A stretch of DNA of 38,717 bases from a virus. The position numbers and the translations under genes were made by a program. Below, piece after piece: positions 13,184 through 33,536 of this stretch. Location: UHGV virus genome UHGV-0007863; one strand, 5' to 3'. Every line of letters begins with the position of its first letter. The stretch's first letter is position 1. The notes under the pieces were generated by a model. It was not told where the DNA came from. It worked only from the letters and a program-made list of their open reading frames with translations, and did not search any database.

Positions 13184-13514
13184 ATCAGCAGCAGAGCGCA
13201 AAGCCGCTCAGAGAGCCAGACAAGCTGCATCCGGTGTACGTAAGCTGGAGATTGTGCTTGATGCTCAGGAAATTGAAATGCTGGAGCGGAACTGCGCCAC
13301 GCGTCGCCCCGGGCGTGTGCCTTACGAATTTGGTGAGTATATTGCGTTACTTATCCGCCAGGATGATGCACGTGTGCGCGGGCGTATAAAATCGATCAGC
13401 AGAAAACTTTGCGGTAAGTGCGGCGAGAGAGTTCCCGTTAATTCATGCCCGTGTAATGGTGACTCGCAATGCTGGGTGACTAAAGGCTGGCATGAAACGA
13501 AATTAATAGTGTGA
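13176..13514 (+). CDS. Small basic protein with C-terminal Cys cluster (zinc-ribbon-like), at the position where lambdoid phages carry Q
   Basis: 112 aa; basic N-terminus; C-x-x-C ... C-x-C ... C cluster; function not assignable from sequence. Confidence 0.5.
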   Translation: MAKSAAERKAAQRARQAASGVRKLEIVLDAQEIEMLERNCATRRPGRVPYEFGEYIALLIRQDDARVRGRIKSISRKLCGKCGERVPVNSCPCNGDSQCWVTKGWHETKLIV

Positions 13515-13522
13515 CATGTCAC
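13511..13522. repeat. 12-bp perfect palindrome GTGACATGTCAC, copy 1 of 3
   Basis: Read directly; overlaps the TGA stop of the 13176-13514 gene. Confidence 0.7.
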
Positions 13523-13531
13523 GAAGGTGTT

Positions 13532-13744
13532 ATGCCAAAAATACGCTACGACCTTGAAGATATGAGAGATAACTCAGCAAATTTTCCGAAAGAGGTTAAA
13601 TTTCTCATGCATAAGTATGGTTGCGCCAGGAGGGATATAGTTATCGACAGTCAGCACCCTTGCGGCGAGGATGTAATTTTCATTCGCGGTAAATGGGAAG
13701 GGTATCTTGACGAGAGTTTTTACGATGAATTTGATGGACTTTGA
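13532..13744 (+). CDS. Hypothetical protein
   Basis: 70 aa from ATG 13532 with GAAGGTG upstream; the ORF-track GTG start at 13511 lies inside the palindrome. Confidence 0.45.
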   Translation: MPKIRYDLEDMRDNSANFPKEVKFLMHKYGCARRDIVIDSQHPCGEDVIFIRGKWEGYLDESFYDEFDGL

Positions 13745-13749
13745 ATACT

Positions 13750-13776
13750 GCCGCCAACTATGGCGGCTTTATTTTG
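13750..13776 (+). terminator. Rho-independent terminator immediately upstream of the terminase operon
   Basis: GCCGCCA-ACTA-TGGCGGC followed by TTTATTTT. Confidence 0.6.
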
Positions 13777-13786
13777 CATGGTACTA

Positions 13787-13819
13787 TTACCACAACGGTA
13801 ACTATTACCACGGTGGTTA
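13787..13819. promoter_or_regulatory. Perfect TTACC-ACAAC-GGTAA (13787-13801) plus near copy TTACC-ACGGT-GGTTA (13805-13819) abutting the terminase small-subunit start
   Basis: Read directly; located between the terminator and the ATG at 13819. Confidence 0.6.
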
Positions 13820-14415
13820 TGATGCCTGCTGAACCTAAAACCTATAAACGCAAATCAACGCAATTTAAGCCACTAACAGCAATGCAGGAGGCTTATTGCC
13901 AGTCATACATCAAAACGCCTGAAAACCAGACTCAGGCAGCGATTAATGCAGGATTCTCCCCAAATACAGCGGCAGTTAAAGCCAGTGTCATGATGCGCGA
14001 TGAACGCATTCAAAAACGGATTGCCGAGTTGATGGAGGAGCGCAACAAACGAATGCGCGTCAGTGCTGATTACGTTCTCATGCGCCTGGTGGAGATCGAC
14101 CAGATGGACGTGATCGACATCCTCAACGACGATGGGAGCCTTAAGCCAATCCGCGAGTGGCCGAAAATCTGGCGCACTACGCTTAGCGGCTTTGATCTGT
14201 CATCGACCATCATGAACATGAACGAGGATTCGATAGAGACAATCCTCAAAAAAATTAAATGGCCTGACAAGGTGAAGAACCTCGAACTGATTGGTAAGCA
14301 CGTCGACGTCAACGCATTCAAAGAACGCCTGGATGTTAATGTGAATGTGACAATTGCTGATCGCATAGCAGCAGCCAGGAAGCGACTCAAAGAACGTCAG
14401 GATGGTAATCAGTGA
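13819..14415 (+). CDS. Terminase small subunit
   Basis: Segment QEAYCQSYIKTPENQTQAAINAGFSPNTAAVKASVMMRDERIQ fits the small-terminase HTH family; true start taken as ATG 13819, since the ORF-track N-terminus is encoded by the operator repeats. Confidence 0.8.
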   Translation: MMPAEPKTYKRKSTQFKPLTAMQEAYCQSYIKTPENQTQAAINAGFSPNTAAVKASVMMRDERIQKRIAELMEERNKRMRVSADYVLMRLVEIDQMDVIDILNDDGSLKPIREWPKIWRTTLSGFDLSSTIMNMNEDSIETILKKIKWPDKVKNLELIGKHVDVNAFKERLDVNVNVTIADRIAAARKRLKERQDGNQ

Positions 14416-15887
14416 CAGATACAGTGTTATCTCCTGAAGAGCAGTTGATCGAGGATATTGCAGGGTTTACTCACGATCCGCTTGGTTATGCCCTCTATGC
14501 GTTCCCGTGGGGGGAAGAGGGGACTGAACTGGCACATGCTACCGGTCCACGTCAGTGGCAGGCCGATGCGTTCCGAGAGATACGTGACCACCTGCAGAAT
14601 CCAGAGATGCGCTATCAGCCGCTTATGCTGGCACGCGCTTCTGGTCACGGTATTGGTAAATCCGCATTCATCTCAATGCTGATCAACTGGGGCATGTCCA
14701 CTTGCGAGGATTGTAAGGTCGTGGTGACCGCCAACACCGACAACCAGCTACGAACGAAGACCTGGCCGGAAATTATCAAGTGGTCGAACCTTGCTATCAC
14801 GAAAGACTGGTTTACCTGTACCGCTACCGCTATGTACAGCAATGATCCTGGGCACGACAAGCGGTGGCGAGCTGACGCAATCCCCTGGTCTGAGCACAAC
14901 ACTGAGGCATTCGCCGGACTACACAACGAGCGCAAACGCATCATCGTGGTATTCGATGAAGCGTCGAACATTGCGGATCTGGTGTGGGAAGTTGCCGAGG
15001 GTGCACTAACTGACGAAGACACTGAGATTATCTGGGTGGCGTTCGGAAACCCGACGCGTAATACCGGACGTTTCCGTGAATGTTTCCGCAAGTATAAACA
15101 CCGCTGGAAAACCGCGCAGATTGACAGTCGGACGGTGGAAGGTACCAACAAACAGCAGTTGCAGAAATGGGTTGATGACTACGGGGAAGACAGCGACTTC
15201 GTTAAAATCCGTGTGCGTGGCATATTCCCTGATGCATCTGAATTGCAGTTTATCCCTACCGGTCTTACTGACGAGGCAATGAAACGGGTGGTAACCGCTG
15301 CGCAGGTTGCACATGCTCCGGTGATAATCGGCGTTGACCCGGCATACTCCGGAGTTGATGACGCTGTGATATACCTGCGGCAGGGGCTACACAGTAAGGT
15401 GCTGTGGACTGGCAACAAGACTACCGACGATCTGATTATGGCGAAGCGTATCGCTGACTTTGAAGACCAGTATCAGGCTGACGCGGTGTTCATCGACTTC
15501 GGTTACGGAACCGGTTTGAAGTCAATCGGTGACGGCTGGGGGCGTACATGGCAACTTGTTCCGTTCGGTGGCGCGTCTACTGACCCGCAGATGCTCAACA
15601 AGCGTGGGGAGATGTTCAATTCATGCAAGACATGGCTGAGGCTTGGCGGCATGCTGGATGACCAGGAAACAGCAGACGACCTGTCGGCGGCAGAGTACAA
15701 AGTTCGAGTGGACGGTAAAATCGTTATCGAACCGAAGGAAGATATCAAGGAGCGGCTTGGGCGTTCGCCTGGTAAAGGCGATGCGCTACTGCTGACGTTT
15801 GCTTTCCCGGTGTCAAAGCGCCTGCGAATTCCCGGGCAGCAGAACCAGCAAGGCAAGGCCATTACAGATTACGATCCCTATGCTTAA
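14412..15887 (+). CDS. Terminase large subunit
   Basis: 491 aa; Walker A-like ASGHGIGKS; acidic nuclease-type C-terminal region; GTG start overlapping the small-subunit stop. Confidence 0.8.
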   Translation: MTDTVLSPEEQLIEDIAGFTHDPLGYALYAFPWGEEGTELAHATGPRQWQADAFREIRDHLQNPEMRYQPLMLARASGHGIGKSAFISMLINWGMSTCEDCKVVVTANTDNQLRTKTWPEIIKWSNLAITKDWFTCTATAMYSNDPGHDKRWRADAIPWSEHNTEAFAGLHNERKRIIVVFDEASNIADLVWEVAEGALTDEDTEIIWVAFGNPTRNTGRFRECFRKYKHRWKTAQIDSRTVEGTNKQQLQKWVDDYGEDSDFVKIRVRGIFPDASELQFIPTGLTDEAMKRVVTAAQVAHAPVIIGVDPAYSGVDDAVIYLRQGLHSKVLWTGNKTTDDLIMAKRIADFEDQYQADAVFIDFGYGTGLKSIGDGWGRTWQLVPFGGASTDPQMLNKRGEMFNSCKTWLRLGGMLDDQETADDLSAAEYKVRVDGKIVIEPKEDIKERLGRSPGKGDALLLTFAFPVSKRLRIPGQQNQQGKAITDYDPYA

Positions 15888-15937
15888 TCCGTTAGCGGGG
15901 ATAATGACGGAGATATCCTCTGGTGAGGATAAAACAA

Positions 15938-15963
15938 AGCCAGCTCATCGGCTGGCTGTTTGT
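15938..15963. terminator. Bidirectional terminator between convergent terminase and minus-strand moron gene
   Basis: AGCCAGC-TCATCG-GCTGGCT with an A-run before and GTTTGT after. Confidence 0.5.
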
Positions 15964-15973
15964 GACATGTCAC
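15962..15973. repeat. 12-bp perfect palindrome GTGACATGTCAC, copy 2 of 3
   Basis: Read directly; abuts the bidirectional terminator. Confidence 0.7.
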
Positions 15974-15977
15974 GGTG

Positions 15978-16349
15978 TTATTGCTCGCTTAACTTCTGCT
16001 TCAGCAAGTAACCTTCAAGCATCCAGATTTTGTTTACAGCATTCTGCCTGGCAATCTTCCGACCAATTTCCGCATCAAAGTTTTCCGGGCTTGCACAGGC
16101 GCTCTCTCCGGTGACGGTGAAGCCGTTGCGCAGCACCAGAACGCAGAACGTCAGCAGAGAAAGTGATTCGTGCGGCTGGTAGTTTACCTCTCCGCCAGTA
16201 TGTTTCGCTTTTATGGCTACGCCAAAGACACCATCTTCTGCTGTGAAATATGCCTCCTGAGCAATAATGCTCTCGATATGGTCTGGCGTAACGCGCGGCG
16301 CGGCTAAACCTTTAGCCTGAATTTCAGATTCAATGTCTTTGTCACTCAT
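15978..16349 (-). CDS. Conserved small phage protein of unknown function, opposite strand to the late operon (moron)
   Basis: 123 aa; AAGGTGAG Shine-Dalgarno; possibly N4 gp49 / Sf6 gp66-like by recollection, unverified. Confidence 0.5.
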   Translation of the reverse strand: MSDKDIESEIQAKGLAAPRVTPDHIESIIAQEAYFTAEDGVFGVAIKAKHTGGEVNYQPHESLSLLTFCVLVLRNGFTVTGESACASPENFDAEIGRKIARQNAVNKIWMLEGYLLKQKLSEQ

Positions 16350-16363
16350 AGTCTATTCTCACC

Positions 16364-16389
16364 TTAAAAAAATGCCCGGCGAACCGGGC
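16364..16389 (-). terminator. Hairpin plus T-run immediately upstream of the 15978-16349 gene
   Basis: GCCCGG-CGAA-CCGGGC with a 7-A run on the plus strand (T-run on the minus strand). Confidence 0.45.
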
Positions 16390-16473
16390 GAACTGGAAGC
16401 AATGAGTTATGCCTTCCGTGGCTGTACTGGTTTACAGCATGAAGTCATCGCAATGGCGTCCTGCTGTAAAAAG

Positions 16474-16509
16474 GGCGGTGATAGTCCTTCAAGTGAAACT
16501 ATCACCGCC
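16474..16509. repeat. Perfect 12-bp inverted repeat GGCGGTGATAGT / ACTATCACCGCC with a 12-nt spacer, about 44 nt downstream of the tRNA 3' end
   Basis: Read directly; likely a processing or termination structure for the tRNA transcript. Confidence 0.6.
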
Positions 16510-16552
16510 AAGCCCCTGGAACTTCTGGCATCACGGTCCTTAGGCGTGATTC

Positions 16553-16629
16553 TGGCGTGGCATGCAGGATTCGAACCTGCGACCAACCGCTTAGAAGGCG
16601 GTTGCTCTGTCCGACTGAGCTAATGCCAC
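16553..16629 (-). tRNA. tRNA-Arg (anticodon UCU), phage-encoded
   Basis: Manual cloverleaf: acceptor GTGGCAT/ATGCCAC, D-arm GCTC-AGTCGGACA-GAGC, anticodon arm ACCGC-CTTCTAA-GCGGT, T-arm GCAGG-TTCGAAT-CCTGC, discriminator G, encoded CCA; 77 nt. Confidence 0.85.
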
Positions 16630-16951
16630 AACGCTGAGAGCACTTAGCCTGTTAAGGCGCCACACTTTGTCGCGGCTCCATAAATGCTCTCATCGTTGTA
16701 CCCTCGTCTCTTCCGAGGCGTCACACCGAATCGCCGGGATGGTGAATCCCCGTGCGCGGAATAAAACCGCTCGACTTGCACATTCCGGCTACCTGGTTCG
16801 TTTGCCCGAGCAAGGGAGGGTGCCCCTTAAACGTATCCAGACCGCTATCGTCGCATGTGCCACACGCCGTACTGCTCAAAATAAAAGCTCACTCCACCTG
16901 TTCAATTTAACGACAAGCCAGTCAGGTTAATAACCGGAATGAACTATTTAC

Positions 16952-16966
16952 TTACCTGAAGGGTAA
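16952..16966. promoter_or_regulatory. Perfect TTACC-TGAAG-GGTAA upstream of the portal operon
   Basis: Read directly; about 90 nt upstream of the ATG at 17057. Confidence 0.6.
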
Positions 16967-17056
16967 TAATTCGTGCATTAAATGTCAACTATCTACGATA
17001 AATAAATCATATGTGGTTAAATTGGTAATAATTTAATTGCGTACGGAGTCATTGAT

Positions 17057-17263
17057 ATGTGCATGGGTAGCTCACCATCAGTGCCTGCAACACCAGAAGT
17101 TCAGGCAGCACCACAGGAGCAGGATGCCGCCGTTGTTGATGCCCGCGACGAAGAAACACGTCGCCGTCGCGCTGCTGCTGGTCGTAGTTCTACGCTGCTT
17201 ACCGGTTCTCAGGGCGACACATCAACCGCTAATACCAGCGGTAAAACGCTGCTTGGTCAGTAA
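17057..17263 (+). CDS. Hypothetical low-complexity small protein upstream of portal
   Basis: 68 aa; its translation initiation region CGGAGTCATTGA(T)ATG is a near-exact copy of the portal's (17265-17280). Confidence 0.4.
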   Translation: MCMGSSPSVPATPEVQAAPQEQDAAVVDARDEETRRRRAAAGRSSTLLTGSQGDTSTANTSGKTLLGQ

Positions 17264-17277
17264 CCGGAGTCATTGAA

Positions 17278-18957
17278 ATGGCGGAAACAACTAAAGAGCG
17301 ATTGAACAAACAGTTCGCACAACTTGAAAGCGAGCGTCAGTCGTTCGAGCCGCACTGGCGCGAGTTGAGTGATTACATCAACCCGCGTGGTTCCCGCTTT
17401 CTGACTTCTGAGGTCAACCGTAACGATCGACGCAATACACGCATTATTGATTCGACCGGGACTATGGCGGCGCGCACTCTCGCCAGCGGCATGATGTCAG
17501 GCATCACAAGCCCCGCCCGTCCGTGGTTTCGCCTGGCTACGCCAGATCCTGAAATGATGGATTATGGCCCTGTTAAGTTGTGGCTTGAGGCGGTGCAGAA
17601 CCGCATGAACGATATGTTCAATAAGTCGAATCTCTACCAGTCTCTTCCGCAGTTATACGGAAGCCTCGGCACATACAGCACTGGTGCAATGGCGGTGCTG
17701 GAGGATGACGAGGACATCATTCGCACAATGCCATTCCCTATAGGCAGTTACTACCTGGCTAACTCACCTCGTGGCAGTGTGGACACCTGTTTCCGCAAGT
17801 TCTCTATGACTGTTCGTCAGCTTGTTCAGGAGTTCGGGCTAAATAACGTCAGCGAATCCGTAAAAAGCATGTGGGAAAGCGGCACCTACGAGAAGTGGAT
17901 TGAAGTGATGCATTCGGTTTACCCGAACATTGACCGCGATACATCGAAGCTGGATAGCAAGAACAAGCCATTCAAATCGGTTTATTACGAGGTTGGTGGC
18001 GATAACGACAAGTTGTTGCGTGAGTCCGGATTCGATGAGTTTCCAATTATGGCTCCGCGCTGGGAAGTTAACGGCGAAGATGTTTATGGATCATCATGCC
18101 CGGGTATGCTGGCGCTTGGACCTGTTAAGGCATTGCAGCTTCTCCAGAAGCGCAAGTCGCAGTTGATTGATAAAGCCACCAATCCGCCGATGGTTGCTCC
18201 GACTTCCCTCAAGAATCAGCGCGCCTCCCTTCTTCCTGGCGACATCACGTATATCGATCAGATTACTGGTCAGGATGGCTTCAGGCCTGCTTATCTGGTT
18301 AACCCCAGTACAGCAGATTTGGTGGCAGACATTCAGGACACCCGTCAAATCATTAACAGCGCCTACTTTGTCGATCTGTTCATGATGTTGCAGAACATCA
18401 ATACCCGCTCGATGCCTGTTGAAGCGGTAATCGAAATGAAAGAAGAAAAACTTCTGATGTTGGGGCCGGTTCTGGAGCGTCTGAACGACGAATGTCTTAA
18501 TCCTCTCATTGACCGCGCTTTCTCGATGATGGTGCGTAAAAACATGCTGCCGCCACCGCCTGACGCGATGGAAGGTATGCCCCTGAAGGTCGAATACATT
18601 TCCGTCATGGCTCAGGCGCAGAAGTCTATCGGCCTGTCCAGTCTGGCGTCTACGGTCAACTTCATTGGTCAACTTGCGCAAGCGAAACCAGAAGCTCTCG
18701 ACAAACTCAACGTTGATCAGGCGATCGATGCATTCGCTGATATGTCCGGAGTGTCTCCAACCGTCATTGTTCCGCAGGAACAGGTTGAGCAGGCTCGCCA
18801 GCAACGGGCACAGCAGCAACAGCAGCAACAAATGATGGCGATGGGGATGGCGGCGGCACAGGGTGCCAAGACGCTAAGCGAAGCTAAAACTTCGGATCCG
18901 AGTGTTTTGTCAGCTATGGCGAATGCAGTTAGTGGTCAGGGTGGGCAATCACAATGA
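17278..18957 (+). CDS. Portal (head-to-tail connector) protein, T7 gp8-like by size and position
   Basis: 559 aa; first large gene after terminase; Gln-rich C-terminus; followed by scaffold and capsid genes. Confidence 0.7.
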   Translation: MAETTKERLNKQFAQLESERQSFEPHWRELSDYINPRGSRFLTSEVNRNDRRNTRIIDSTGTMAARTLASGMMSGITSPARPWFRLATPDPEMMDYGPVKLWLEAVQNRMNDMFNKSNLYQSLPQLYGSLGTYSTGAMAVLEDDEDIIRTMPFPIGSYYLANSPRGSVDTCFRKFSMTVRQLVQEFGLNNVSESVKSMWESGTYEKWIEVMHSVYPNIDRDTSKLDSKNKPFKSVYYEVGGDNDKLLRESGFDEFPIMAPRWEVNGEDVYGSSCPGMLALGPVKALQLLQKRKSQLIDKATNPPMVAPTSLKNQRASLLPGDITYIDQITGQDGFRPAYLVNPSTADLVADIQDTRQIINSAYFVDLFMMLQNINTRSMPVEAVIEMKEEKLLMLGPVLERLNDECLNPLIDRAFSMMVRKNMLPPPPDAMEGMPLKVEYISVMAQAQKSIGLSSLASTVNFIGQLAQAKPEALDKLNVDQAIDAFADMSGVSPTVIVPQEQVEQARQQRAQQQQQQQMMAMGMAAAQGAKTLSEAKTSDPSVLSAMANAVSGQGGQSQ

Positions 18958-19250
18958 CAGATTACGAAGACGATCAACTGAAAGAAGAAAACGCCCGTAA
19001 GCAACGTGACATGGCGCAGCGTGAAATTGATGACATTCGCTTTGTCATGAGCAGTGAACAGGGGCGTCGCGTTGTCTGGTCGGTGCTGGAGAAAGGCCGT
19101 GTGTTTTCCGCTATCTCACCGATGGACGCTATGGCAATGGCATTTAATGAGGGGCAACGCAATCTGGCGCTGGAACTGTTTCAACGCGTTATGGCGCATT
19201 GCCCTGAACAGTATTTGAAGATGGCCAAAGAGGCCAGTGAACAGGAGTGA
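18954..19250 (+). CDS. Hypothetical head-morphogenesis protein
   Basis: 98 aa, acidic; overlapping stop/start with portal. Confidence 0.45.
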   Translation: MTDYEDDQLKEENARKQRDMAQREIDDIRFVMSSEQGRRVVWSVLEKGRVFSAISPMDAMAMAFNEGQRNLALELFQRVMAHCPEQYLKMAKEASEQE

Positions 19251-19252
19251 TC

Positions 19253-19948
19253 ATGAATTTATTTGAGCGTTTGCTGTATCGCCGTCTTTGCAATGAGCAA
19301 CCAGTCGATGGTGGAGCAGCTCCGGCTGCGTCAGAACCGTCAGCGCCTGCAGGTGATAACCCTGCTCCAGTTGGTGATCCATCACAACAGGAAGGTGATA
19401 AGCCACAACCTGTTGCTGATGGCGATAAACCTGCTGATGACAAAAAGCCTGAAAACGATAAGCAGGATGAAAAAAAGGACGGCGATAAACCAGAGGGTGC
19501 GCCTGAGAAGTACGAGTTTCAGGCTGCCGAAGGCGTAGAGCTGGATACAGAAGCGTTGAAGGAATTCGAGCCGGTGGCGCGAGAACTTAACCTGACCAAC
19601 GAGCAAGCGCAAAAGCTGGTTGATGCTTATCCGAAGATTCTGGCAGGTGTTCAGCAGCGCCAGGCAGAAGCCTGGCAGAAAACAACCGAGCAGTGGGCTG
19701 CGGATGTAAAAGCTGACAAAGAAATCGGTGGCGACAAGTTGATTTCTAACCTTAGCGTCGCACAGCGTGCGCTTGACCAGTTCGGGACACCTGAACTCAA
19801 AGAATATCTGAACACCACCGGGCTGGGTAATCACCCTGATCTGGTCAAAACGTTCGTGAAAATCGGAAAGGCGATGTCTGAAGATGGCATGGTCACCGGT
19901 GGTAATGAAGGCCAGCGTAGTGCGGCCGAAGTGCTCTATGGCAAATAA
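19253..19948 (+). CDS. Scaffolding protein
   Basis: Highly charged Asp/Lys/Glu/Pro-rich N-terminal half with a helical C-terminal half; lies between portal and capsid; ATG 19253 with GGAG 5 nt upstream. Confidence 0.55.
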   Translation: MNLFERLLYRRLCNEQPVDGGAAPAASEPSAPAGDNPAPVGDPSQQEGDKPQPVADGDKPADDKKPENDKQDEKKDGDKPEGAPEKYEFQAAEGVELDTEALKEFEPVARELNLTNEQAQKLVDAYPKILAGVQQRQAEAWQKTTEQWAADVKADKEIGGDKLISNLSVAQRALDQFGTPELKEYLNTTGLGNHPDLVKTFVKIGKAMSEDGMVTGGNEGQRSAAEVLYGK

Positions 19949-19962
19949 GAGAGGAAATGACA

Positions 19963-20949
19963 ATGGCTGTTAAAGGCTTAACTGCGCTAACGCTGGCTGA
20001 CTGGGGTAAGCGCGTCGATCCAAACGGGAAAGTCGATAAGATTATCGAGCTTCTCGGTCAAACTAACCCGATCCTTCAGGATATGCCTTTTGTCGAAGGG
20101 AACCTTCCTACCGGACACCGAACCACCATTCGTTCTGGTTTACCTTCAGCTACCTGGCGTTTGCTGAACTATGGCGTACAGCCAAGCAAATCAACCACAG
20201 TGCAGGTAACCGATTCCGTTGGCATGCTGGAAACCTATGCTGAAGTCGATAAGTCACTGGCTGATCTGAACGGCAATACCGCTGAATTCCGCCTGTCTGA
20301 AGACCGCGCATTTATTGAAGCGATGAATCAGCAGATGGCGCAGACGCTGTTTTATGGTGATTCCAGCGTTAACCCTCAGCAGTTTATGGGACTGTCCTCC
20401 CGCTATTCCAGCCTGTCTGCGGGTAATGCTCAGAACATCATTGATGCTGGTGGCACGGGTACAGATAACACCTCAATCTGGTTAGTGGTGTGGGGCGAAA
20501 ACACCGTGCATGGCATCTTCCCGAAAGGGCAGAAGGCTGGCATCCAGATGGAAGATAAAGGCCAGGTGACACTGGAAGATGCGAATGGCGGCAAGTACGA
20601 AGGCTACCGTACCCATTACAAATGGGACAACGGACTTGCTCTGCGTGACTGGCGTTATGTTGTTCGCATTGCAAACATCGATGTCAGCAATCTTTCAGAA
20701 CCTTCTTCTGCCGCAAATATTGCGAAGTTGATGGTTAAAGCACTGCATCGCATTCCAAACCGTGGCATGGGGCGCCCAGTGTTCTACATGAACCGCACTG
20801 TAGGCCAGGCTCTTGATCTGCAATCTCTGGAGAAAACATCTCTGGCGATCAGCGTAAAAGAGACAGAAGGCGAGTGGTGGACTTCATTCCGTGGTGTACC
20901 AATCCGTGAAACTGATGCGCTTCTGGAAACAGAAGCCCGCGTGGTGTAA
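19963..20949 (+). CDS. Major capsid protein
   Basis: ~329 aa following scaffold; ATG 19963 preferred (GAGG 8 nt upstream) over 19957; followed by a terminator at 21802-21822. Confidence 0.6.
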   Translation: MAVKGLTALTLADWGKRVDPNGKVDKIIELLGQTNPILQDMPFVEGNLPTGHRTTIRSGLPSATWRLLNYGVQPSKSTTVQVTDSVGMLETYAEVDKSLADLNGNTAEFRLSEDRAFIEAMNQQMAQTLFYGDSSVNPQQFMGLSSRYSSLSAGNAQNIIDAGGTGTDNTSIWLVVWGENTVHGIFPKGQKAGIQMEDKGQVTLEDANGGKYEGYRTHYKWDNGLALRDWRYVVRIANIDVSNLSEPSSAANIAKLMVKALHRIPNRGMGRPVFYMNRTVGQALDLQSLEKTSLAISVKETEGEWWTSFRGVPIRETDALLETEARVV

Positions 20950-21000
20950 CGCCTGTTATTAACCTGTGGGTCGTAACAGACCCACTAATGGAGAAAGAAG

Positions 21001-21438: not shown

Positions 21439-21448
21439 GGTGATATCG

Positions 21449-21784
21449 ATGTCAGGTGAGAAACCAAGATACCGCGTTCTGCGCCTCTCTCATATCCATA
21501 ACACTCTGTGGCCGGAGGGGGCAGAAATCGAATACGAAGGTGAGCCTGGTAGCGCACTGGAACCTGTTAACGATGCAGCCAGACAGGCAAAAGCAAAAGT
21601 TGCAGGAAAGGTGTCAATGGCAGCAACCAGCACCAAAATCATCAACGATGTGTCAGATGATGGTGAACTGGATAAGCTCCGTGAAGAGTACGAATTGCTC
21701 TTTAACGAGAAGCCACACCATAACGCCAAAGCCGAAACGCTCCGCGAGAAGATCGCAGATAAGCGTAAAGAACTGGGCGTGTAA
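21449..21784 (+). CDS. Hypothetical protein
   Basis: ATG 21449 with AAGGTG upstream; charged C-terminus. Confidence 0.45.
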   Translation: MSGEKPRYRVLRLSHIHNTLWPEGAEIEYEGEPGSALEPVNDAARQAKAKVAGKVSMAATSTKIINDVSDDGELDKLREEYELLFNEKPHHNAKAETLREKIADKRKELGV

Positions 21785-21801
21785 GCCTCGCGGATCAGAC
21801 A

Positions 21802-25698: not shown

Positions 25699-26243
25699 TG
25701 TGCGATCCGGTTATTGCTGGTGGCGCAATGCTCGCCATGAGTGGCATTCAGGCATACACCCAGTACCAACAGGGAAAGTATGCCTCGAAGGTTGCAGAAG
25801 CGAACGCAGATATAGCCACTGCTCAGGCAAATGATGCAATAAACAGAGGTAACGCTGAAGCTGAGCAACGGCGCAGAGAGACCCGACAGCGGCTTGGTAC
25901 ACAGGCGGCGACAATGGGGGCTACCGGCGCTGATTTATCTACAGGTAACGCGCTGGATATATTTGGCGACACTGCCCAGTTTGGCTCTCTTGATTCGCTG
26001 ACGACGGTGAATAACGCGCAACGCGAGGCTTACGGTTATCAGGTTCAGGCTGCCAACTATAAAGCAGAAGCCAGTTCAGCCCGTAAACAGGGGAATGTGG
26101 GAGCAGCAACAACATTGCTCACTGCGCCTCTGAAGGCATACGGTGCGTACCAGATGTTTGGTGGGACGTGGAGTCCGTTTACTCAAAGCACTCCTGCGCC
26201 AATCGGGGCAGCAGCAGGAACCAGATTACCCGGAGGATTATAA
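25698..26243 (+). CDS. Putative internal virion protein (T7 gp14 position)
   Basis: 181 aa; hydrophobic N-terminus; Gln/Ala-rich. Confidence 0.4.
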   Translation: MCDPVIAGGAMLAMSGIQAYTQYQQGKYASKVAEANADIATAQANDAINRGNAEAEQRRRETRQRLGTQAATMGATGADLSTGNALDIFGDTAQFGSLDSLTTVNNAQREAYGYQVQAANYKAEASSARKQGNVGAATTLLTAPLKAYGAYQMFGGTWSPFTQSTPAPIGAAAGTRLPGGL

Positions 26244-28756
26244 TGCCAGTCGTACCAACAGTATCCGGACGTCAGGTTGAGAGCCGTGGAGTTCAGTCAG
26301 CAGGCTTGCAGACGTTTTCTCAGTCAGGTATTGGTGATGCTTTTGTTCTGGCAGGGGCAGAGACTATTGATGTTTTTGGTCAGGCAAAACAGCGTGCCAA
26401 TATCGCTCTGGCTCAGGAGGCATCTCTTAACCTCAGTCAGATAAGCAGCGATCTGCTGAATAACCCTGAAACAGGGTTGCTTAACCTGAAAGGGAAAAAT
26501 GCTATTGGAAAAGGCCATGAGTATACGCAGCAGTTTGATGCTCAGGTCGAACAACTGGCTATGTCGCTGCCGGATGAACAGGTTCGTAATACTTTCATGC
26601 AGCAGGCGCAGCAGCAGCGCATTCAGTTCACTACGCAGGCCGGGCGGCACGAGATAGGGCAAATAAACGCCTACGAAGAAGGCCAGTTTCAGGCTACGCT
26701 GCTGAACAATGGTAAAAATGCCGCAGCATTGTATGGCGACAACGCCGCATACGTATTGGCTAATAAGCAAACTTTCCAGCAAATTGAGGATTACGGCATT
26801 GCGCATGGCTGGAGCGACGAGCAAATCCAGGCCAAGAAAGTCGAGTTTAAAGAGAAGGTTGCTGATGCCGCATTGTCCCAGTGGTCGGCAAACAATGCGA
26901 CCGCATTCATCCAAAGTAATGGCGAGTTAAGTGATACTGCTGCTGGAGCTCGCCGTGCTGTAGCAGATAGTGACTCTTCCGAGCGTGCCCGTGGCATACG
27001 CAACAATAACCCAGGAAATCTCGAATACAGCAAAACTAATCCGTGGGTAGGCCAGACCGGTGATGATGGTCGATTTGCTAAATTCGAAACACCTGAACAC
27101 GGGATTCGTGCATTAGGGCGAAACCTGATGTCGTATCAGAGGCAGGGTATTGATACCGTCAGCGAGATAATTAATCGCTGGGCACCGCCTACTGATAAAA
27201 ATGACACTATGTCGTATATCAAAGCAGTGTGCGAACAACTTGGCGTTTCTGCTGATGAGCCTCTCGATGCATCTAATCCTGATACCCTGAAGGCGCTTTG
27301 TGCAGCCATTATCCATCATGAGAACGGTAGCCAGCCATACAGTGATCAGCAGTTAACTGCTGGTGTCAGTGCAGCACTTGGTTTATCAACAATTCCAACC
27401 AACACCAAACGCTATACCGGTAATGCAGCATTCGATGCGGCATCTCCTGAGGCGCAGGCAAGTTTTATGCGACAGGCTGATCAACTGCGTCGGCAGCAGC
27501 AGGCTGAATATAAAACGATGATTGACAGCCAGGTTCGCGATGCGACAGCTGCGTATATGCGTGGCGTTGAATTTCCTAACCCACCTGGTGAGGCTGATTT
27601 TATTGCAGCTTATGGAGTAAGAGAAGGAAACCTGCGATATACCGAGTTCAGAAATACGCAAATCGCCGGACAGTATATAGGCTCTTTCCGCAACATGCCG
27701 ACAAGCAGCATTACAGCATATGTTGAGCAATTACGCCCGGATACTGGTGAGACAGGGGGGGGGTATGCGGCACGCGCAGCTCTTTATGACAACGTTGTTT
27801 CGGCTGCAAATCAGGTGATAAAGCAGCGGCAGTCGGATCCTGTGCAGTTCTCTCTTGCCTCCGGACAGGCAAAGCCTATCGACATGAGCAATAAGGATAA
27901 CTTTGGACAGAGCGTTGCCTTGCGTGCCGCTCAGGTCAGTGACATTGCTAAGTCATATGGCACTCCACTGACGTTCTTTTCCAAAGACGAGGCCAATCAG
28001 ATCGGTGTTTTCTTTCGTGATGCTCCAGTTTCCCAACAGGCAGCATATCTCGATACCATCAGGCAGAGCACTGGTGGTGGGCAGGTGTATATGTCAGCAC
28101 TACAGCAGATCAGTGCCAACGCTCCATCTGCTGCCGTTGCCGGGATACTGATGGATAAGCCTGGTGGTATTTTGGCAGAAAAAAACTGGTTTAATCCGGA
28201 TGTTTCCGTGTCTCCTGAAACCGCTGCGCAGACAATTCTTGCTGGCGCGGCGGCTCGTAAAGGTACTGATGATGCGAAAGGTATTCCGATGCCTAAAGAT
28301 GCTGATCTTCGCCTTGAGTTTTCTGACATGGTGAAGGATGCATTTGCTGGTGACGCTCAGGGGGCATCAATGGCATACGAGATCGCAAAGGATTATTACG
28401 CTGGTGTGATGGCGAAAAAAGGCGTGGTATCAGGCGAAATTGACAATGATGTCTGGAAACAGGCTGTTAACGTAGCTACAGGTGGCGTGCATGACTATAA
28501 CGGAATGGGGAATGTCCTTTTGCCGTGGGGAATGTCTGCAGAGCAATTCGATAAGCAGGTTAATCAGGCTTGGATTGAACAAGTTGTCGGCTCTGGGATA
28601 AAAACACCGCCTGGTCAGTATGGTTTGCAAAGTTACGGCGATAGTCAGTACCTGGTGAAACTTGGTACTGGTTATCTGCTGAAAGATGATGGTTCTCCCG
28701 TTGTTCTTAATCTGACACAGAAGCGTCAGAGATTCTCCGGAGATATTCCGCAATGA
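26243..28756 (+). CDS. Large internal virion / ejection protein
   Basis: ATG 26243 overlapping the upstream TAA; ~837 aa; a segment RGIRNNNPGNLEY...WAPP may be a cell-wall-hydrolase-like module (unverified). Confidence 0.45.
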   Translation: MPVVPTVSGRQVESRGVQSAGLQTFSQSGIGDAFVLAGAETIDVFGQAKQRANIALAQEASLNLSQISSDLLNNPETGLLNLKGKNAIGKGHEYTQQFDAQVEQLAMSLPDEQVRNTFMQQAQQQRIQFTTQAGRHEIGQINAYEEGQFQATLLNNGKNAAALYGDNAAYVLANKQTFQQIEDYGIAHGWSDEQIQAKKVEFKEKVADAALSQWSANNATAFIQSNGELSDTAAGARRAVADSDSSERARGIRNNNPGNLEYSKTNPWVGQTGDDGRFAKFETPEHGIRALGRNLMSYQRQGIDTVSEIINRWAPPTDKNDTMSYIKAVCEQLGVSADEPLDASNPDTLKALCAAIIHHENGSQPYSDQQLTAGVSAALGLSTIPTNTKRYTGNAAFDAASPEAQASFMRQADQLRRQQQAEYKTMIDSQVRDATAAYMRGVEFPNPPGEADFIAAYGVREGNLRYTEFRNTQIAGQYIGSFRNMPTSSITAYVEQLRPDTGETGGGYAARAALYDNVVSAANQVIKQRQSDPVQFSLASGQAKPIDMSNKDNFGQSVALRAAQVSDIAKSYGTPLTFFSKDEANQIGVFFRDAPVSQQAAYLDTIRQSTGGGQVYMSALQQISANAPSAAVAGILMDKPGGILAEKNWFNPDVSVSPETAAQTILAGAAARKGTDDAKGIPMPKDADLRLEFSDMVKDAFAGDAQGASMAYEIAKDYYAGVMAKKGVVSGEIDNDVWKQAVNVATGGVHDYNGMGNVLLPWGMSAEQFDKQVNQAWIEQVVGSGIKTPPGQYGLQSYGDSQYLVKLGTGYLLKDDGSPVVLNLTQKRQRFSGDIPQ

Positions 28757-30555
28757 GTTACTTTGGCCTTAATCCAGTAAACCAGAATCAGCAGCTTGAC
28801 GAAGCAGCATCAAATCCAGCTGGCTTTAACAGCGATGTTGGTTTTTTCGACAATGCTGTAGGAGCGGCATTGTCTGGTTTGTACTCCGGGCTGGTGGCAA
28901 AGCCAGATCAGTTGCTATGGGCAGGGATGGATAAAATCGTATCCCCGATTGCTCAGTTTGTTAACGAAAACACCTCGCTCAATGATACTTCAGTTTCATA
29001 CATTGCCGAGCAGAGAAAACTAGCAGAGCAGCAGGTTAAGCGGCTGACGCCTGATGCCGCGACAACCGGAACCGCTGGGCAGGTTCTTTATGGGTTGTTC
29101 GATATGGGCGGGCAGGCTGTTGTCGGTACAACGCTCGGTGGTCCTGTCGGAGGTGCAGCGGCGGTAACTTCGCTACAGGGTTTTTCTGAGTTTGAACGGC
29201 TGACAGCACAGGGTGTTGATTTCAGGACGGCGCAGGAAGCTGGATTAGTGCAGGGCATTACTGCTGGTGCCGGAACGCTGATCCCTATGAGCCTCGGGTT
29301 ACGTGCTGGTGGTGCGCTGGCGGAAGGTGTGGCGGCTCGGCTTGCGCGGACGGGTGAAAGTTCAGTGCGACGCGCCGCAGCAACAGCAGTACGTGCAACG
29401 CCAGATATTGCCTATGCCGCAGGTACAAATATTGCGTTCGGTATGGCACAGCGTGGGCTTACTGCAAAAACGCTTCGTGATGGTGGCTATAGCGAAATGG
29501 CTAACCAGTATGATGTGTTGGATCGACAGGCAATTGCTATTGATGCTGTTCTTGGGGTGGCGTTTGGTGGTGTCGGCAGATTTATTAACTCTCGCGGTGA
29601 GGCTACAAGCACCCCCAATTTTTCACCAGTTGATGTCGATGCTGCACTGGCGGCGAATGCCGCTCATCATGCTGAAATTGATATTTCTCCCGGCGTGCCG
29701 ATCAACGTGCTTTCGCGCAATTCTCACATTCAGGCTCTGCGAAAAGCTATGTCTGATGTTAGCCAGGGGAGACCTGTAGACGTTGCCAGCATTGTTGAGT
29801 CTGCATCTTTCAGTGAAATTCCTGGGCGCAAGAGTCTGCTGTCTCAGGCAGTTAATGAGGCTCTGTCATCTGTAGATGATGGAGTAACGGCGCGCGCTAT
29901 AGAAAATCGGTTGCTTGAAGAACAGGCCGCGCAGCTTTTGCCGCGTGGAGATAGACAGGTTTACCAGTCTGAAATCGCTAATAGCCAACGAATTATTGAA
30001 AATCTCACTGAACAGCGTGCACAAATTCTTGCAGAAGAGCCAACCGGTAGCGGTAAAGCTTTGTCTCGTGCTCGATCAGATAAACAGGCCAGACTTCGCG
30101 ATATTGATCAACGAATCCGGCAGGCACAAGAACGCCTGGAATTTTCCCGTAACGCGTTGGCACCGCACGAGCCTGGAGGTCAGTTTTTTGAAGCTCGAGC
30201 AGAACTGGCTCGGAGACAGCAGGCAGAAAGTGAACTTAATGCTCAGGCTGTTTCATTCTATAAAACAGCAGAGGTCAGGACGCCAGACGAAGTAGCTCCT
30301 TTTGAGCCTGATAAAATATTGCAACAGGCAGAACAAAAAATGATGGCGGATCAGGCAGGAGATATTGATCTGCGCATAGCTGAAGACTCGCTGCTTGAAT
30401 CACCTGACATGATAATCACCGTGCTGGATGATGATGGTAATCCACAATCGCGCAGCGCGCGTGAAGTACTGGATGAAGCGAACAGGGAAAGTGAGCAGGC
30501 AATACAGGATTCCAGCCTGTTTGATGTCGCTGTGGCGTGTTTCTTGAGAGGTTAA
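28753..30555 (+). CDS. Large internal virion / ejection protein
   Basis: 600 aa; Ala/Gly-rich N-terminal half with a charged helical C-terminal half. Confidence 0.45.
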   Translation: MSYFGLNPVNQNQQLDEAASNPAGFNSDVGFFDNAVGAALSGLYSGLVAKPDQLLWAGMDKIVSPIAQFVNENTSLNDTSVSYIAEQRKLAEQQVKRLTPDAATTGTAGQVLYGLFDMGGQAVVGTTLGGPVGGAAAVTSLQGFSEFERLTAQGVDFRTAQEAGLVQGITAGAGTLIPMSLGLRAGGALAEGVAARLARTGESSVRRAAATAVRATPDIAYAAGTNIAFGMAQRGLTAKTLRDGGYSEMANQYDVLDRQAIAIDAVLGVAFGGVGRFINSRGEATSTPNFSPVDVDAALAANAAHHAEIDISPGVPINVLSRNSHIQALRKAMSDVSQGRPVDVASIVESASFSEIPGRKSLLSQAVNEALSSVDDGVTARAIENRLLEEQAAQLLPRGDRQVYQSEIANSQRIIENLTEQRAQILAEEPTGSGKALSRARSDKQARLRDIDQRIRQAQERLEFSRNALAPHEPGGQFFEARAELARRQQAESELNAQAVSFYKTAEVRTPDEVAPFEPDKILQQAEQKMMADQAGDIDLRIAEDSLLESPDMIITVLDDDGNPQSRSAREVLDEANRESEQAIQDSSLFDVAVACFLRG

Positions 30556-30560
30556 ATTAA

Positions 30561-33035
30561 ATGAGACAGGAATGTATACAAGCGGTCCAGCAGGCGGCGC
30601 AGCGCACGTTAACGGCGCGAGAAATACAGAACATTGAAGACCGCATTTATCGAAATATGCGCTCCATTGCTCGTGATGACCCGATGTCGTGGAGACAACT
30701 TTCCGAATCAGAGCGGCTATATCGTGCAGCACAATTGGCATCTGAAGAATTACAGCGAGAAGCGGCATTAAGGAAACGTCGTGTGGCCCTCACTATAGCC
30801 GCACGTCAGAGATTGGATAAATTTATCAATAGCTATCAAGGGTCTGATGGGAAACTTGGCGCTCTTAACCGTACTATTGCTTTTAATGCAGACGGTAAAT
30901 CGAATTTCCTCTCTGTTGAATCCAGAACAAAAGCCACTCGTGATTATGCATTGAGTCAATTGCAGGAGGCATTTGAAGCAGTTGATCCTCGCTTTTTTGG
31001 CCTGTTTGAAGATGAAGCTGGCGTGCGTGACCTGGTATATGAAATGCGAGGGCAAAATACTGGCAATGCTAAAGCAAGAAAAGGTGCTAAGGCGTGGAGA
31101 GAAGTGACAGAGCTACTGCGCCGCCGGTTTAATGATGCTGGTGGGGACATTGGCTATCTCGAAAACTGGGGGATCCCTCAACATCATTCTATGGAAAAGG
31201 TTGGGGCGGTATCAAAGGATAAGTGGGTTAGCGATGTTATAGGTAAGCTGGATCGCAAATATTATATCCGAGCCGATGGACAACTGATGAACGATGCCGA
31301 GTTGTCTTCATTTCTTGGAGAGGCTTATAACACGATCGCTACTGGTGGGCTGAATAAGCTTACTGATACCGGAATGCGAATTTCCGGCGCACGTGCTAAC
31401 CGTGGTAATGCATCACGACAGATACATTTCAAAGATGCAGATTCCTATCTGCAATATCAACAACTTTATGGCGATCGCTCTCTATGGGAAATCATGGTCG
31501 GTCACCTGGAAGGTATCAGTAAAGATATTGCACTGGTGGAAACATATGGCCCAAACCCCGATCATGTTTTCCGCTCTCTTCTTGATCAGGTGAAGGCAGA
31601 AACGGCAACAGCTAACCCGAGTAAAACCGGTAAAGTCGAGCGGCTGGCGAACAACACAGAGAATCTGTACAACTTTATTTCCGGAAAGACACAGCCTGTA
31701 GCGAATCCGCACATCGCGCGATGGTCTGACAATATCCGCAACTGGCTGGTTGCCAGCAGACTCGGATCCGCGTTGCTGTCATCGTTCTCTGATCTTGGAA
31801 CCATGTATCTGTCTGCGAAGGTGACCAACCTTCCAATGAACCAGTTATTCCGCAACCAGCTTGAAGCTATGGACCCAACGAACCGTACAGAACTTGCGCG
31901 GGCGCGCCGCGCTGGTCTGGCGATGGAATCTCTACTTGGCAGCGTTAACCGCTGGGCGATGGATAATATGGGGCCGTCTGTGTCTCGTTGGGCTGCAACG
32001 GCGGTAATGCGTGCCAGTGGGCTTACAGCATGGTCAGATGCGCACAAGCGCGCCTATGGCGTAACCATGATGGGAAGCCTGGGAGAAGTAGTGTCACGGA
32101 CACCAGACCTTCGTAGCCTCGATGATTCTGATTTTCGTATCCTGAAAAGCAAAGGGATTACTGACACAGACTGGAGCGTATGGAAGCTGGCTCAACAGGA
32201 GGACTGGGGGAACGGCAATAATACGATGCTGACACCGGAAAGCATTATGCGTATCCCTGATTCAGCAGTTAAACATCTTGGTGAGCCTGAACGCGTGAAA
32301 TTTGAGGCAATGCGTAAACTGCTCGGTGCCGTAACTGAAGAAGTTGATATGGCTGTTATTACACCGGGAGCACGTGAGCAACTGATAACCGGTTCTGGTA
32401 TTCAGCGTGGAACATGGAAAGGTGAATTAACGAGAAGTGTTTTCCTGTTTAAATCGTTCCCTATCTCGGTGGTTATGCGTCACTGGTCACGCGCTATGGG
32501 TATTCCGTCTGCTGGTGGGCGTGCGGCATATATTGCGACGTTTATTGCCAGTACGACCATTCTTGGCGCTTTGTCGCAGCAACTTAACGACCTTGCGTCT
32601 GGTCGTAATCCTCGCGAGATGACAGGAGAAGATGCTGCTAAATTTTGGCTTGGTGCTCTACTGAAAGGTGGTGGTCTTGGCCTTTACGGTGACTTTTTAT
32701 TGTCAGATCACACTAGGTACGGAAGCGGCGCACTGGCGTCGATGCTTGGCCCGGTAGCTGGTCTGGTTGATGACGTAGTGAAGATTGCTCAGGGCATACC
32801 GTTAAATGCTGTGGAAGGGAAGAATGAGCAGACTGGTGGTGATCTGGTTAAGCTGGGGAAAGGTCTGATGCCAGGTGCGAATCTCTGGTACTTAAAGGCG
32901 GCTCTCGATCACATGATCTTTAACCAGATGCAGGAGTATTTTTCACCAGGTTATTTGCGTAAAATGGAGCAACGTTCGAAGAAAGAGTTTAACCAGACAT
33001 ACTGGTGGCGACCACAGGATGTCACTCCGCAATAA
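30561..33035 (+). CDS. Large internal virion / ejection protein (T7 gp16 position)
   Basis: 824 aa; last gene before the moron island and tail fiber. Confidence 0.45.
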   Translation: MRQECIQAVQQAAQRTLTAREIQNIEDRIYRNMRSIARDDPMSWRQLSESERLYRAAQLASEELQREAALRKRRVALTIAARQRLDKFINSYQGSDGKLGALNRTIAFNADGKSNFLSVESRTKATRDYALSQLQEAFEAVDPRFFGLFEDEAGVRDLVYEMRGQNTGNAKARKGAKAWREVTELLRRRFNDAGGDIGYLENWGIPQHHSMEKVGAVSKDKWVSDVIGKLDRKYYIRADGQLMNDAELSSFLGEAYNTIATGGLNKLTDTGMRISGARANRGNASRQIHFKDADSYLQYQQLYGDRSLWEIMVGHLEGISKDIALVETYGPNPDHVFRSLLDQVKAETATANPSKTGKVERLANNTENLYNFISGKTQPVANPHIARWSDNIRNWLVASRLGSALLSSFSDLGTMYLSAKVTNLPMNQLFRNQLEAMDPTNRTELARARRAGLAMESLLGSVNRWAMDNMGPSVSRWAATAVMRASGLTAWSDAHKRAYGVTMMGSLGEVVSRTPDLRSLDDSDFRILKSKGITDTDWSVWKLAQQEDWGNGNNTMLTPESIMRIPDSAVKHLGEPERVKFEAMRKLLGAVTEEVDMAVITPGAREQLITGSGIQRGTWKGELTRSVFLFKSFPISVVMRHWSRAMGIPSAGGRAAYIATFIASTTILGALSQQLNDLASGRNPREMTGEDAAKFWLGALLKGGGLGLYGDFLLSDHTRYGSGALASMLGPVAGLVDDVVKIAQGIPLNAVEGKNEQTGGDLVKLGKGLMPGANLWYLKAALDHMIFNQMQEYFSPGYLRKMEQRSKKEFNQTYWWRPQDVTPQ

Positions 33036-33231
33036 GGAAGTGTTGTGTTTTTAATTATTTTGAGTGTGATAATTTCTGGTGTATTGTTATTTATTGACCG
33101 CTACAAATATTTTCTTAACCCTCAGACTCAAGCTATTTGCTGGTTCATCTTTGTTGTGCAGGGAGTAGTTCTTGTTGCAAGCCTTATTGAGGGGAGGCCT
33201 CTTATTTTTACTGGGTAAATTAGGTGACTAC

Positions 33232-33528
33232 ATGCAAGCTATAGGATTCATTGTTTATATCGTCGTTGGTCTTTTTCAGTTGGCAGCAATTATGGCTGGG
33301 CTTGAATCATGGTGGGGATTGCACTGGATAATTGCAGCCCCCATTGCTTTCATCGTGAGCTATATTCCATTTGTTGGAGCGATTGTTGGTATGGTTGGCG
33401 CTGTGGATGTATGGCGGTGGGAGTGGTGGCAGGCTGGCCTTCTCTTCTTTGGTGGGATCATCTTTGCTATTGTCTGCGGTGGAATGTCATCATTTTTCGA
33501 ATGGCTATCATTCAGAAAAGGGACGTGA
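33232..33528 (+). CDS. Small polytopic membrane protein (moron)
   Basis: ATG 33232 with AGGTGA upstream; 98 aa, almost entirely hydrophobic; preceded by an AT-rich stretch at 33036-33231. Confidence 0.5.
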   Translation: MQAIGFIVYIVVGLFQLAAIMAGLESWWGLHWIIAAPIAFIVSYIPFVGAIVGMVGAVDVWRWEWWQAGLLFFGGIIFAIVCGGMSSFFEWLSFRKGT

Positions 33529-33536
33529 CATGTCAC
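33525..33536. repeat. 12-bp perfect palindrome GTGACATGTCAC, copy 3 of 3
   Basis: Read directly; overlaps the TGA stop of the membrane-protein gene. Confidence 0.7.

Follow-up and report, generated by a model that had tools for sequence, protein, structure and literature searches.

A 12-bp palindrome at transcription-unit ends of an epsilon15-like prophage and its candidate phage-encoded binding protein

Introduction

Ribbon-helix-helix regulators that recognise palindromic operators are a well-known kind of DNA-binding protein. A site of closely related sequence is matS, the target of the ribbon-helix-helix protein MatP, which organises the Ter macrodomain at the chromosome terminus of Escherichia coli. 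In this species matS has the form GTGAC[AG]N[TC]GTCAC with the consensus GTGACATTGTCAC (PMC3603311, PMC8669397), and prophages are reported to avoid it (Bobay et al., PMC3603311). Here we describe a 12-bp perfect palindrome, GTGACATGTCAC (general form GTGAC-N2-GTCAC), in the virus genome UHGV-0007863, a stretch of 38,717 nucleotides (nt) referred to below as the window. The three exact copies lie at the ends of transcription units, and we consider it somewhat probable that they are operators of the protein encoded at 13176-13514 and serve to mark or regulate operon boundaries.

The window corresponds to a prophage that belongs to the genus Uetakevirus (epsilon15/phiV10 group) and is about 97-98% identical to vB_EcoP_ZX5 and phiV10 across the terminase region. 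The integrase is encoded at the left end, the early-left genes lie on the minus strand, the early-right operon spans about 7.9-13.5 kb, and the terminase, structural, tailspike and lysis genes are found downstream of it. No phage paper mentioning the 12-mer or five variants of it was found in the open-access and bioRxiv literature searched; the paper on ZX5 covers the repressor, antirepressor and integrase only.

The palindrome in the window

Exact copies of GTGACATGTCAC are present in the whole window only at 13511, 15962 and 33525 (Table 1), which agrees with the three identical 12-mers reported in the initial annotation, and none of 100 dinucleotide-preserving shuffles contained an exact match. 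No other 12-bp palindrome recurs in the window, the chance expectation for GTGAC-N2-GTCAC is about one motif per megabase, and a near-match with two mismatches at 19006 is at chance level. Outside the 12 bases the three copies show no similarity to one another.

All three copies lie at transcription-unit ends, each with a stop codon on one side and an intrinsic terminator on the other. The three junctions so marked are those between the early operon and the terminase genes, between the terminase operon (terL) and a converging gene of the PF13876 family, and between the structural operon and a converging antirepressor-like gene. The overlap with the TGA stop of the upstream gene, claimed for two copies, is found at copy 1 (open reading frame (ORF) 13176-13514) and copy 3 (ORF 33172-33528). 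Copy 2 had been placed beside the terminase terminator; it does adjoin the hairpin at 15938-15957, but is better described as standing by the stop codon of the minus-strand gene 15978-16349.

The palindrome was also compared with elements of known type, none of which it matches. As the initial annotation had noted, the half-site spacing does not fit CRP (TGTGA-N6-TCACA) or LexA (CTGT-N8-ACAG), as a direct reading of the sequence confirms. A -35 hexamer (GTGACA) has a -10 element at 17 nt only at copy 1 of Salmonella-type phages, and this -35/-10 context is kept neither in the window nor at copies 2 and 3. As an intrinsic terminator the palindrome folds with only -1.2 kcal/mol and has no T-run, the terminators being separate, adjacent hairpins.

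The initial annotation further linked the palindromes to TTACC-N5-GGTAA sites a short distance downstream. This holds only loosely, the nearest such sites being 276, 990 and 369 nt away (at 13787, 16952 and 33894). The window has 13 sites of this type against 0.66 expected, preceding early and late operons alike, and the matching positions in the epsilon15 GenBank record are annotated as prophage repressor binding sites before several operons. The link is not specific, because TTACC sites also front several operons that lack the palindrome; they are a separate, already recognised system.

Conservation in Uetakeviruses

Eight relatives from Escherichia, Salmonella, Enterobacter and Klebsiella carry the 12-mer at the corresponding three places, among them phiV10, epsilon15, Tyrion (Enterobacter), SPN1S (Salmonella), BUCT554 (Enterobacter), and BUCT711 and Kp4865-1 (Klebsiella), the DNA identity of the compared relatives to the window being about 80% or less. 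The departures are few: phiV10 has one mismatch in copy 1, BUCT711 lacks copy 2 and Kp4865-1 lacks copy 3. In ungapped alignments anchored on the site (seven phages at copy 2), all 12 site columns are invariant at copies 2 and 3, where 6 and 2 of the 72 flanking columns are invariant, respectively; at copy 1, whose upstream flank is coding sequence, the figures are 10/12 and 22/72. The gene upstream of copy 3 varies among phages while the site and the next terminator are kept, and in Tyrion, where an extra gene splits terL from the copy 2 junction, the site remains with the minus-strand gene and not with terL.

Loss or displacement of the palindrome in close relatives had been named as the observation that would speak against a role. 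The 12-mer is instead kept in place while its flanks diverge, which clearly favours function and shows the sites to be under strong selection in Uetakeviruses.

The arrangement around the sites is likewise retained. In nearly all Uetakevirus carriers the stop codon is followed by the site (overlapping it or within 8 nt), then after 0-4 nt by a GC-rich hairpin and a T-run, with the site-to-hairpin gap extended to 11 nt in BUCT711. This order runs on the plus strand at copy 3 and on the minus strand at copy 2. At copy 1 the gap to the terminator is 22 nt in Salmonella-type phages, and the window has a 70-codon ORF inserted there.

Klebsiella Uetakeviruses have a fourth exact copy, within an internal-virion-protein gene (at 26462 in BUCT711 and 24674 in Kp4865-1).

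A gene family that accompanies the motif

The gene overlapped by copy 1 belongs to a family that includes epsilon15 gp49, phiV10 p55 and N15 gp46, and that comprises 148 clusters at 50% identity among 1.8 billion representatives, most of the hosts being enterics, Vibrio and Aeromonas. Its product has no match in Pfam, NCBIfam or PADLOC, and PHROGs labels it only as 'transcriptional regulator'. A PDB sequence search with the single protein and a scan of viral contigs with the distant member P0195 both returned no match.

GTGAC-N2-GTCAC accompanies the family gene in every lineage sampled, namely Uetakeviruses, N15-like phages, P2-like Yersinia phages, Pantoea and Vibrio phages, and metagenomic relatives. 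The motif lies over the stop codon of the family gene in 79 of 88 Uetakevirus-type loci (centre AT), in all 50 N15-like loci (centre TG) and in 47 of 50 Yersinia P2-like loci (centre CG), many of the last with a second whole or half site downstream. In the Pantoea myophage AH07 the site GTGACAGGTCAC (centre AG) overlaps the stop, and in phage Chlobot the motif (centre AT) lies 7 nt past it. Among the metagenomic relatives the motif is at the stop in L192 and L198 (centre mostly CG; one mismatch in the L192 stop copy), 15 nt past it in L195 (centre AG) and at the start of the family gene in L194 (centre AG), while L192, L193 and L200 have motif pairs exactly 23 bp apart (centre CG, or AC/GT). 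The centre dinucleotide is usually uniform within a genome and different between lineages, with the exception of BUCT554, where copy 1 has CT but the other two copies have AT.

N15 illustrates the within-genome uniformity, with three copies of GTGACTGGTCAC, all of TG centre, at 28550, 33237 and 39269. These lie, in this order, in the intergenic region upstream of genes 32-30, within repA and at the gp46 stop. Within repA the 12-mer is invariant while neighbouring wobble positions vary, and the intergenic copy falls within a promoter-like TGTGCA-17-TAAAAT, a promoter assigned by sequence reading only.

In the reverse direction, IMG/VR was searched for two GTGAC-N2-GTCAC motifs 5-35 nt apart, with no reference to the gene. 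At least 120 tandem-motif loci were recovered, with spacing peaks at 22-24 and 33 bp. A full family gene is present at 26 of them, where as a rule one site falls on its stop codon and the other follows 21-27 bp beyond, and at least the N-terminal domain of the family is encoded within 600 nt at 31 (E <= 1e-3). Five loci encode the N-terminal domain alone, with a different C-terminus, and in these relatives the gene is directly preceded by two or three sites at 33-bp intervals (three in L221); such genes with upstream sites suggest that GTGAC is read by the N-terminal part.

The initial annotation had offered several readings of the palindrome; of these, recognition by a second phage DNA-binding protein is favoured here, on the grounds that the family co-occurs with the motif across distant phages and is predicted to have a ribbon-helix-helix fold. 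The family member in the window, 13176-13514, is one of the candidate binders named in that annotation, which called it a zinc-ribbon protein.

Some further observations concern these lineages. Six motif copies occur back to back with a 12-bp period in one viral contig (L284, 3661-3732) and as a regular array in another (L246, 10584-10702); no family gene was detected in the stored stretch of either. In AH07 an exact GTGACATGTCAC at 34430 lies within an annotated antitermination-protein gene, where it encodes a C-V-T-C-H zinc-finger motif and is probably coincidental. N15 has a LexA box at 39564, downstream of gene 47. In the Vibrio-type relatives L089, L192, L193, L195, L197 and L199 the region before the holin gene has ACCACAAA direct repeats, -35 and -10 elements, a conserved leader (aacgtggt...tgcgt) and a terminator, a shared layout that points to another late regulator distinct from the palindrome binder.

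Predicted structure of the protein

An AlphaFold2 model of the 13176-13514 protein, built on a 54-sequence alignment, has a mean predicted local distance difference test score of 92.6. It comprises a basic helix (residues 5-19, with the invariant R8 and R13), an extended segment (20-29), two helices (30-42 and 52-74), a Cys-rich knuckle (78-99) and a last helix (100-108). The best structural matches of the model are ribbon-helix-helix (beta-alpha-alpha) proteins, and MatP is also among the structural hits, so a DNA-binding fold of this type is predicted; Foldseek searches of the model against the PDB and against viral models gave no useful match.

The Cys-rich C-terminal module is probably zinc-binding. 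Searched against the PDB, the family profile gave a weak match to the zinc fingers of TraR and YbiI over the C-terminal half (E 0.04-0.05), which is only a lead. The cysteine pattern of the family is CxxC-x7-C-x9-C or a variant of it, compared with CxxC-x17-CxxC in DksA/TraR.

Proposed role at operon boundaries

From the association of gene and motif we infer that the 13176-13514 protein binds the palindromes; the direction of its effect (block, read-through or looping) is indicated more weakly. Because the gene is the last of the early-right operon, the protein would appear after induction or infection. It would bind GTGAC-N2-GTCAC as a dimer, using the N-terminal basic helix and the ribbon-helix-helix domain. 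Once bound, it would most likely reinforce or gate the three boundaries, with less read-through and fewer collisions between converging units, and at copy 1 it would control passage from the early operon into the region before the terminase genes. A boundary role is consistent with the location of all three sites at transcription-unit ends, two of them between converging genes, with the hairpin 0-4 nt from copies 2 and 3 in nearly all carriers, and with the origin of the protein from the last early gene.

Several points weigh against this reading. The adjacency to terminators, tested as a family-wide trait, was rejected as such and is specific to Uetakeviruses; in the other lineages the sites are near promoters and not terminators. 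A single small dimer would be a poor roadblock for RNA polymerase, and a block at copies 1 and 3 would stall polymerase before the upstream stop codon. No family gene could be detected in the vicinity of about three quarters of the tandem-motif loci, so the motif is not exclusive to the family, and some of these loci clearly belong to other systems (e.g. repeats within a replication gene in L250 and L243). Finally, the beta-strand of the ribbon-helix-helix is poorly conserved while the half-site is invariant, and the invariant basic residues lie in the preceding helix, which leaves the reading head uncertain.

Alternative explanations

The alternative that survives best, although we judge it unlikely, keeps the same protein and site and makes the pair a late-gene activator or a lambda Q-like antiterminator loaded at DNA, giving read-through or a start at late promoters. 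The family gene takes the place of lambdoid Q, at the end of the early genes and ahead of the terminase or lysis genes, in Uetakeviruses and in Vibrio phage K303, L195, L197 and L199, and the C-terminal half of the protein weakly resembles the RNA-polymerase-binding TraR/DksA zinc finger (E about 0.04). Sites near promoters keep this alternative a serious one: in L192, L193 and L195 a late-promoter-like region, which includes a leader terminator followed by a holin gene, has its -35 about 42 nt downstream of the site; copy 1 of epsilon15, SPN1S and Tyrion forms GTGACA-17-TAAATT, followed by a terminator and the small terminase subunit gene (terS); in Klebsiella and Enterobacter Uetakeviruses a umuD-like gene has a LexA-box promoter whose -35 lies 6 nt downstream of the site; and in N15 and L222 it falls in the spacer of a promoter-like sequence. 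However, the window and phiV10 have lost the promoter-like context of copy 1, and for copies 2 and 3 the distance to the next late promoter region is 370-990 nt. At copy 2 transcription from terL meets the terminator before the site, and read-through would therefore give only antisense RNA. No similarity to the Pfam families of Q proteins was found in the 13176-13514 protein or its 54-member family, and the annotated repressor operators of epsilon15, hence separate promoters, precede each late operon.

A second alternative, which we regard as quite improbable, is that the sites are matS mimics bound by host MatP, tying the phage DNA to host chromosome organisation, and that the linkage to the family gene is incidental. 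The half-sites equal those of matS, and most hosts are enterics, Vibrio and Aeromonas, but the spacer is 2 bp and not 3, GTGAC-N3-GTCAC is absent from the window, and the reported avoidance of matS by prophages (PMC3603311) also runs counter to it. Furthermore, the motif tracks a phage gene across six lineages, with a centre that is usually uniform per genome and differs between lineages, and N-domain-only relatives with their sites are found in high-GC phages.

Action of the palindrome in RNA, as a 3' untranslated hairpin beside the terminator that affects mRNA stability, processing or termination, has similarly poor prospects, and the RNA element envisaged in the initial annotation is weakened accordingly. 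The order stop codon-palindrome-terminator is consistent in orientation with the adjacent gene at all three copies, and in context a 4-bp hairpin can stack on the terminator stem. Against this, the hairpin alone has -1.2 kcal/mol with a z-score of -0.03, and it is the sequence that is conserved and not the pairing, the half-sites being invariant and the loop variable, with no compensatory changes. The linked protein has a predicted DNA-binding fold, and in relatives tandem pairs are phased by helical turns and sites also occur upstream of promoters and genes, a pattern that fits recognition of DNA.

The least probable reading makes the sites recombination or nuclease targets at module junctions, which would explain the adjoining variable accessory genes. 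All three copies do border variable regions of Uetakevirus genomes: copy 1 is followed by the inserted ORF or a umuD-like gene, additional genes stand between terL and the portal operon in the neighbourhood of copy 2, and the antirepressor module beyond copy 3 differs. Against it, accessory genes gather at operon ends anyway, family and fold searches found no nuclease or recombinase fold or motif in the linked protein, L221 (N-domain-only) and L222 have classic promoter-operator layouts, and nothing was found in support of the hotspot suggested initially.

Local anatomy of the three junctions

The features surrounding the palindromes are collected in Table 1.

Table 1. Palindrome copies and neighbouring features, in window coordinates
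Feature	Position	Strand	Remarks
Proposed binding-protein gene (gp49 family), 112 amino acids, phrog_536	13176-13514	+	Last gene of early-right operon
Palindrome copy 1	13511-13522		Over TGA stop (13512-13514) of the proposed binding-protein gene; end of early-right operon
Small inserted ORF, 70 amino acids, phrog_1541	13532-13744	+	Between copy 1 and terminator
Intrinsic terminator, GCCGCCAACTATGGCGGC plus T-run	13750-13775	+	Early operon/terS junction
Two TTACC-N5-GGTAA-type sites	13787-13819		Just upstream of probable terS start (ATG 13820/13823)
Hairpin AGCCAGCCGATGAGCTGGCT plus TTGTTTT	15930-15957	-	Terminator on minus strand, weaker on plus
Palindrome copy 2	15962-15973		4 nt past stop of minus-strand 15978-16349; 4 nt before hairpin 15957-15938
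N4 gp49/Sf6 gp66 family gene, PF13876	15978-16349	-	3' end carries copy 2
Strong terminator, GCCCGGTTCGCCGGGC plus T-run	16389-16374	-	Directly upstream of ribosome-binding site of PF13876 gene
Last structural-operon gene, phrog_3075	33172-33528	+	Stop codon within copy 3
Palindrome copy 3	33525-33536		Over TGA stop (33526-33528) of ORF 33172-33528; terminator (33537-33554) directly after
Intrinsic terminator, AGGCCGCTTTCGCGGCCT plus TTTCTTT	33537-33562	+	Begins on the base following copy 3
Antirepressor-like gene, phrog_450/phrog_1760	33560-33835	-	Converges on copy 3
Other TTACC-N5-GGTAA-type sites	136-150, 5628-5704, 6402-6464, 6787-6801, 8689-8765, 16952-16966, 33894-33908, 36865-36879		

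At the first junction, the small inserted ORF has no counterpart in epsilon15, SPN1S and Tyrion and is a remnant in phiV10. The epsilon15 annotation has a terminator at the place equivalent to 13750-13775 and a prophage-repressor operator at the equivalent of 13787-13819. The terS ORF as mechanically called (TTG 13741, as also in the phiV10 annotation) crosses both the terminator and the repressor operators; comparison with epsilon15 indicates that the true start is probably ATG 13820 or 13823. In Klebsiella and Enterobacter Uetakeviruses, namely BUCT711 (L086), L203 and Kp4865-1 (L204), TTGACT...TATACT with a LexA box lies 6 nt past copy 1, and this promoter drives a 109-amino-acid umuD-like gene (phrog_3469) inserted before terS. 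The region concerned is at 34-363 in L086, 7860-8189 in L203 and about 12710-12760 in L204.

At the second junction, the PF13876 gene is bracketed by terminators on both sides, at 16374-16389 and past its stop codon. A tRNA-Arg gene (anticodon tct; 16553-16629, minus strand) lies between the terminase and portal operons, overlapping the plus-strand ORF 16333-16623, which matches phrog_4647.

At the third junction, a LexA box, CTGTATATTTATACAG, is present at 33839-33854 upstream of the antirepressor-like gene, with equivalents in epsilon15, SPN1S and Tyrion. An SOS-controlled antirepressor scheme has been described for this phage group, and the position of the box fits it.

Away from the junctions, the same hairpin (AACCCTCTGT...ACAGAGGGTTTTT) occurs near both window ends, at 47-76 and 38680-38712, and probably represents a duplicated attachment-site region with a host terminator. 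The reported integration site of ZX5, the closest relative, is the 3' end of guaA (PMC9782041).

Comparison with known systems

Among regulators of RNA polymerase, TraR/DksA proteins resemble the 13176-13514 product in that its helix and Cys-rich knuckle align weakly with TraR and YbiI; the cysteine spacing differs, and the fold searches did not recover them. TraR/DksA proteins are not known to bind DNA. Lambda Q shares with it the place of the gene, last of the early genes before the late genes, and several relatives have the succession of site, promoter-like sequence, leader terminator and late genes. In contrast, no sequence or fold similarity to Q is seen, and two of the three window sites are not at promoters.

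Parallels are also found among ribbon-helix-helix regulators such as Arc, Mnt, CopG, AmrZ and antitoxins, which share the predicted beta-alpha-alpha fold and short palindromic targets; relatives of the phage protein with sites in or upstream of their own-gene promoters add to the likeness. The phage protein differs in its additional N-terminal basic helix with invariant arginines and its Cys-rich module, and the sites in the window differ in being single palindromes the size of one dimer, not arrays, that lie between stop codons and terminators and not at promoters.

A further likeness is to MatP/matS. The half-sites GTGAC/GTCAC are identical, the phage site being GTGACATTGTCAC minus one central base, the reader is predicted to be a ribbon-helix-helix protein whose modelled core is shared with MatP, and in both cases single palindromes occur in isolation at dispersed places on a replicon. 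On the other hand, the phage site has 12 and not 13 bp, no 13-bp matS is present in the window, the protein is phage-encoded, and the sites lie at gene ends beside terminators. The 112-residue model leaves no room for the four-helix bundle or C-terminal coiled coil of MatP. Alignment of the 54-sequence family profile with E. coli MatP (query sequence verified against PDB 4d8j) by hhalign gave a probability of 0.3% over 12 columns, and MatP Pfam domains were not among the hits of the 54 family members. The 13176-13514 protein is not a member of the MatP family, and only the logic of recognition appears alike. The one-base-shorter site would be compatible with the avoidance of matS by prophages. 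More speculatively, and in our view improbably, phages of enterobacteria and vibrios may carry a miniature MatP/matS-like system, made up of a ribbon-helix-helix protein with a zinc module and of 12-bp sites shortened by one base to avoid cross-talk with the host system, in which the DNA-bound protein would control adjacent termination or antitermination or bridge the three sites into operon-sized loops.

What is new relative to these systems is a family with a consensus site, the placement of that site on the family gene's own stop codon and against terminators, and its near-identity to matS. A family so far 'hypothetical' in epsilon15, phiV10, N15, P2-like Yersinia phages and many Vibrio phages thereby gains a likely DNA target and a testable function, with a defined 12-bp consensus available for experiments, and in annotation the motif flags operon ends and the 3' end of the family gene. 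In epsilon15-like phages, where repressor operators stand before every operon, the boundary sites provide a handle on the timing and insulation of transcription units. The single-base difference from matS raises the matter of spacing specificity among ribbon-helix-helix proteins, and the likeness between the two sites raises the question of whether phages avoid or exploit the chromosome-organising system of their hosts.

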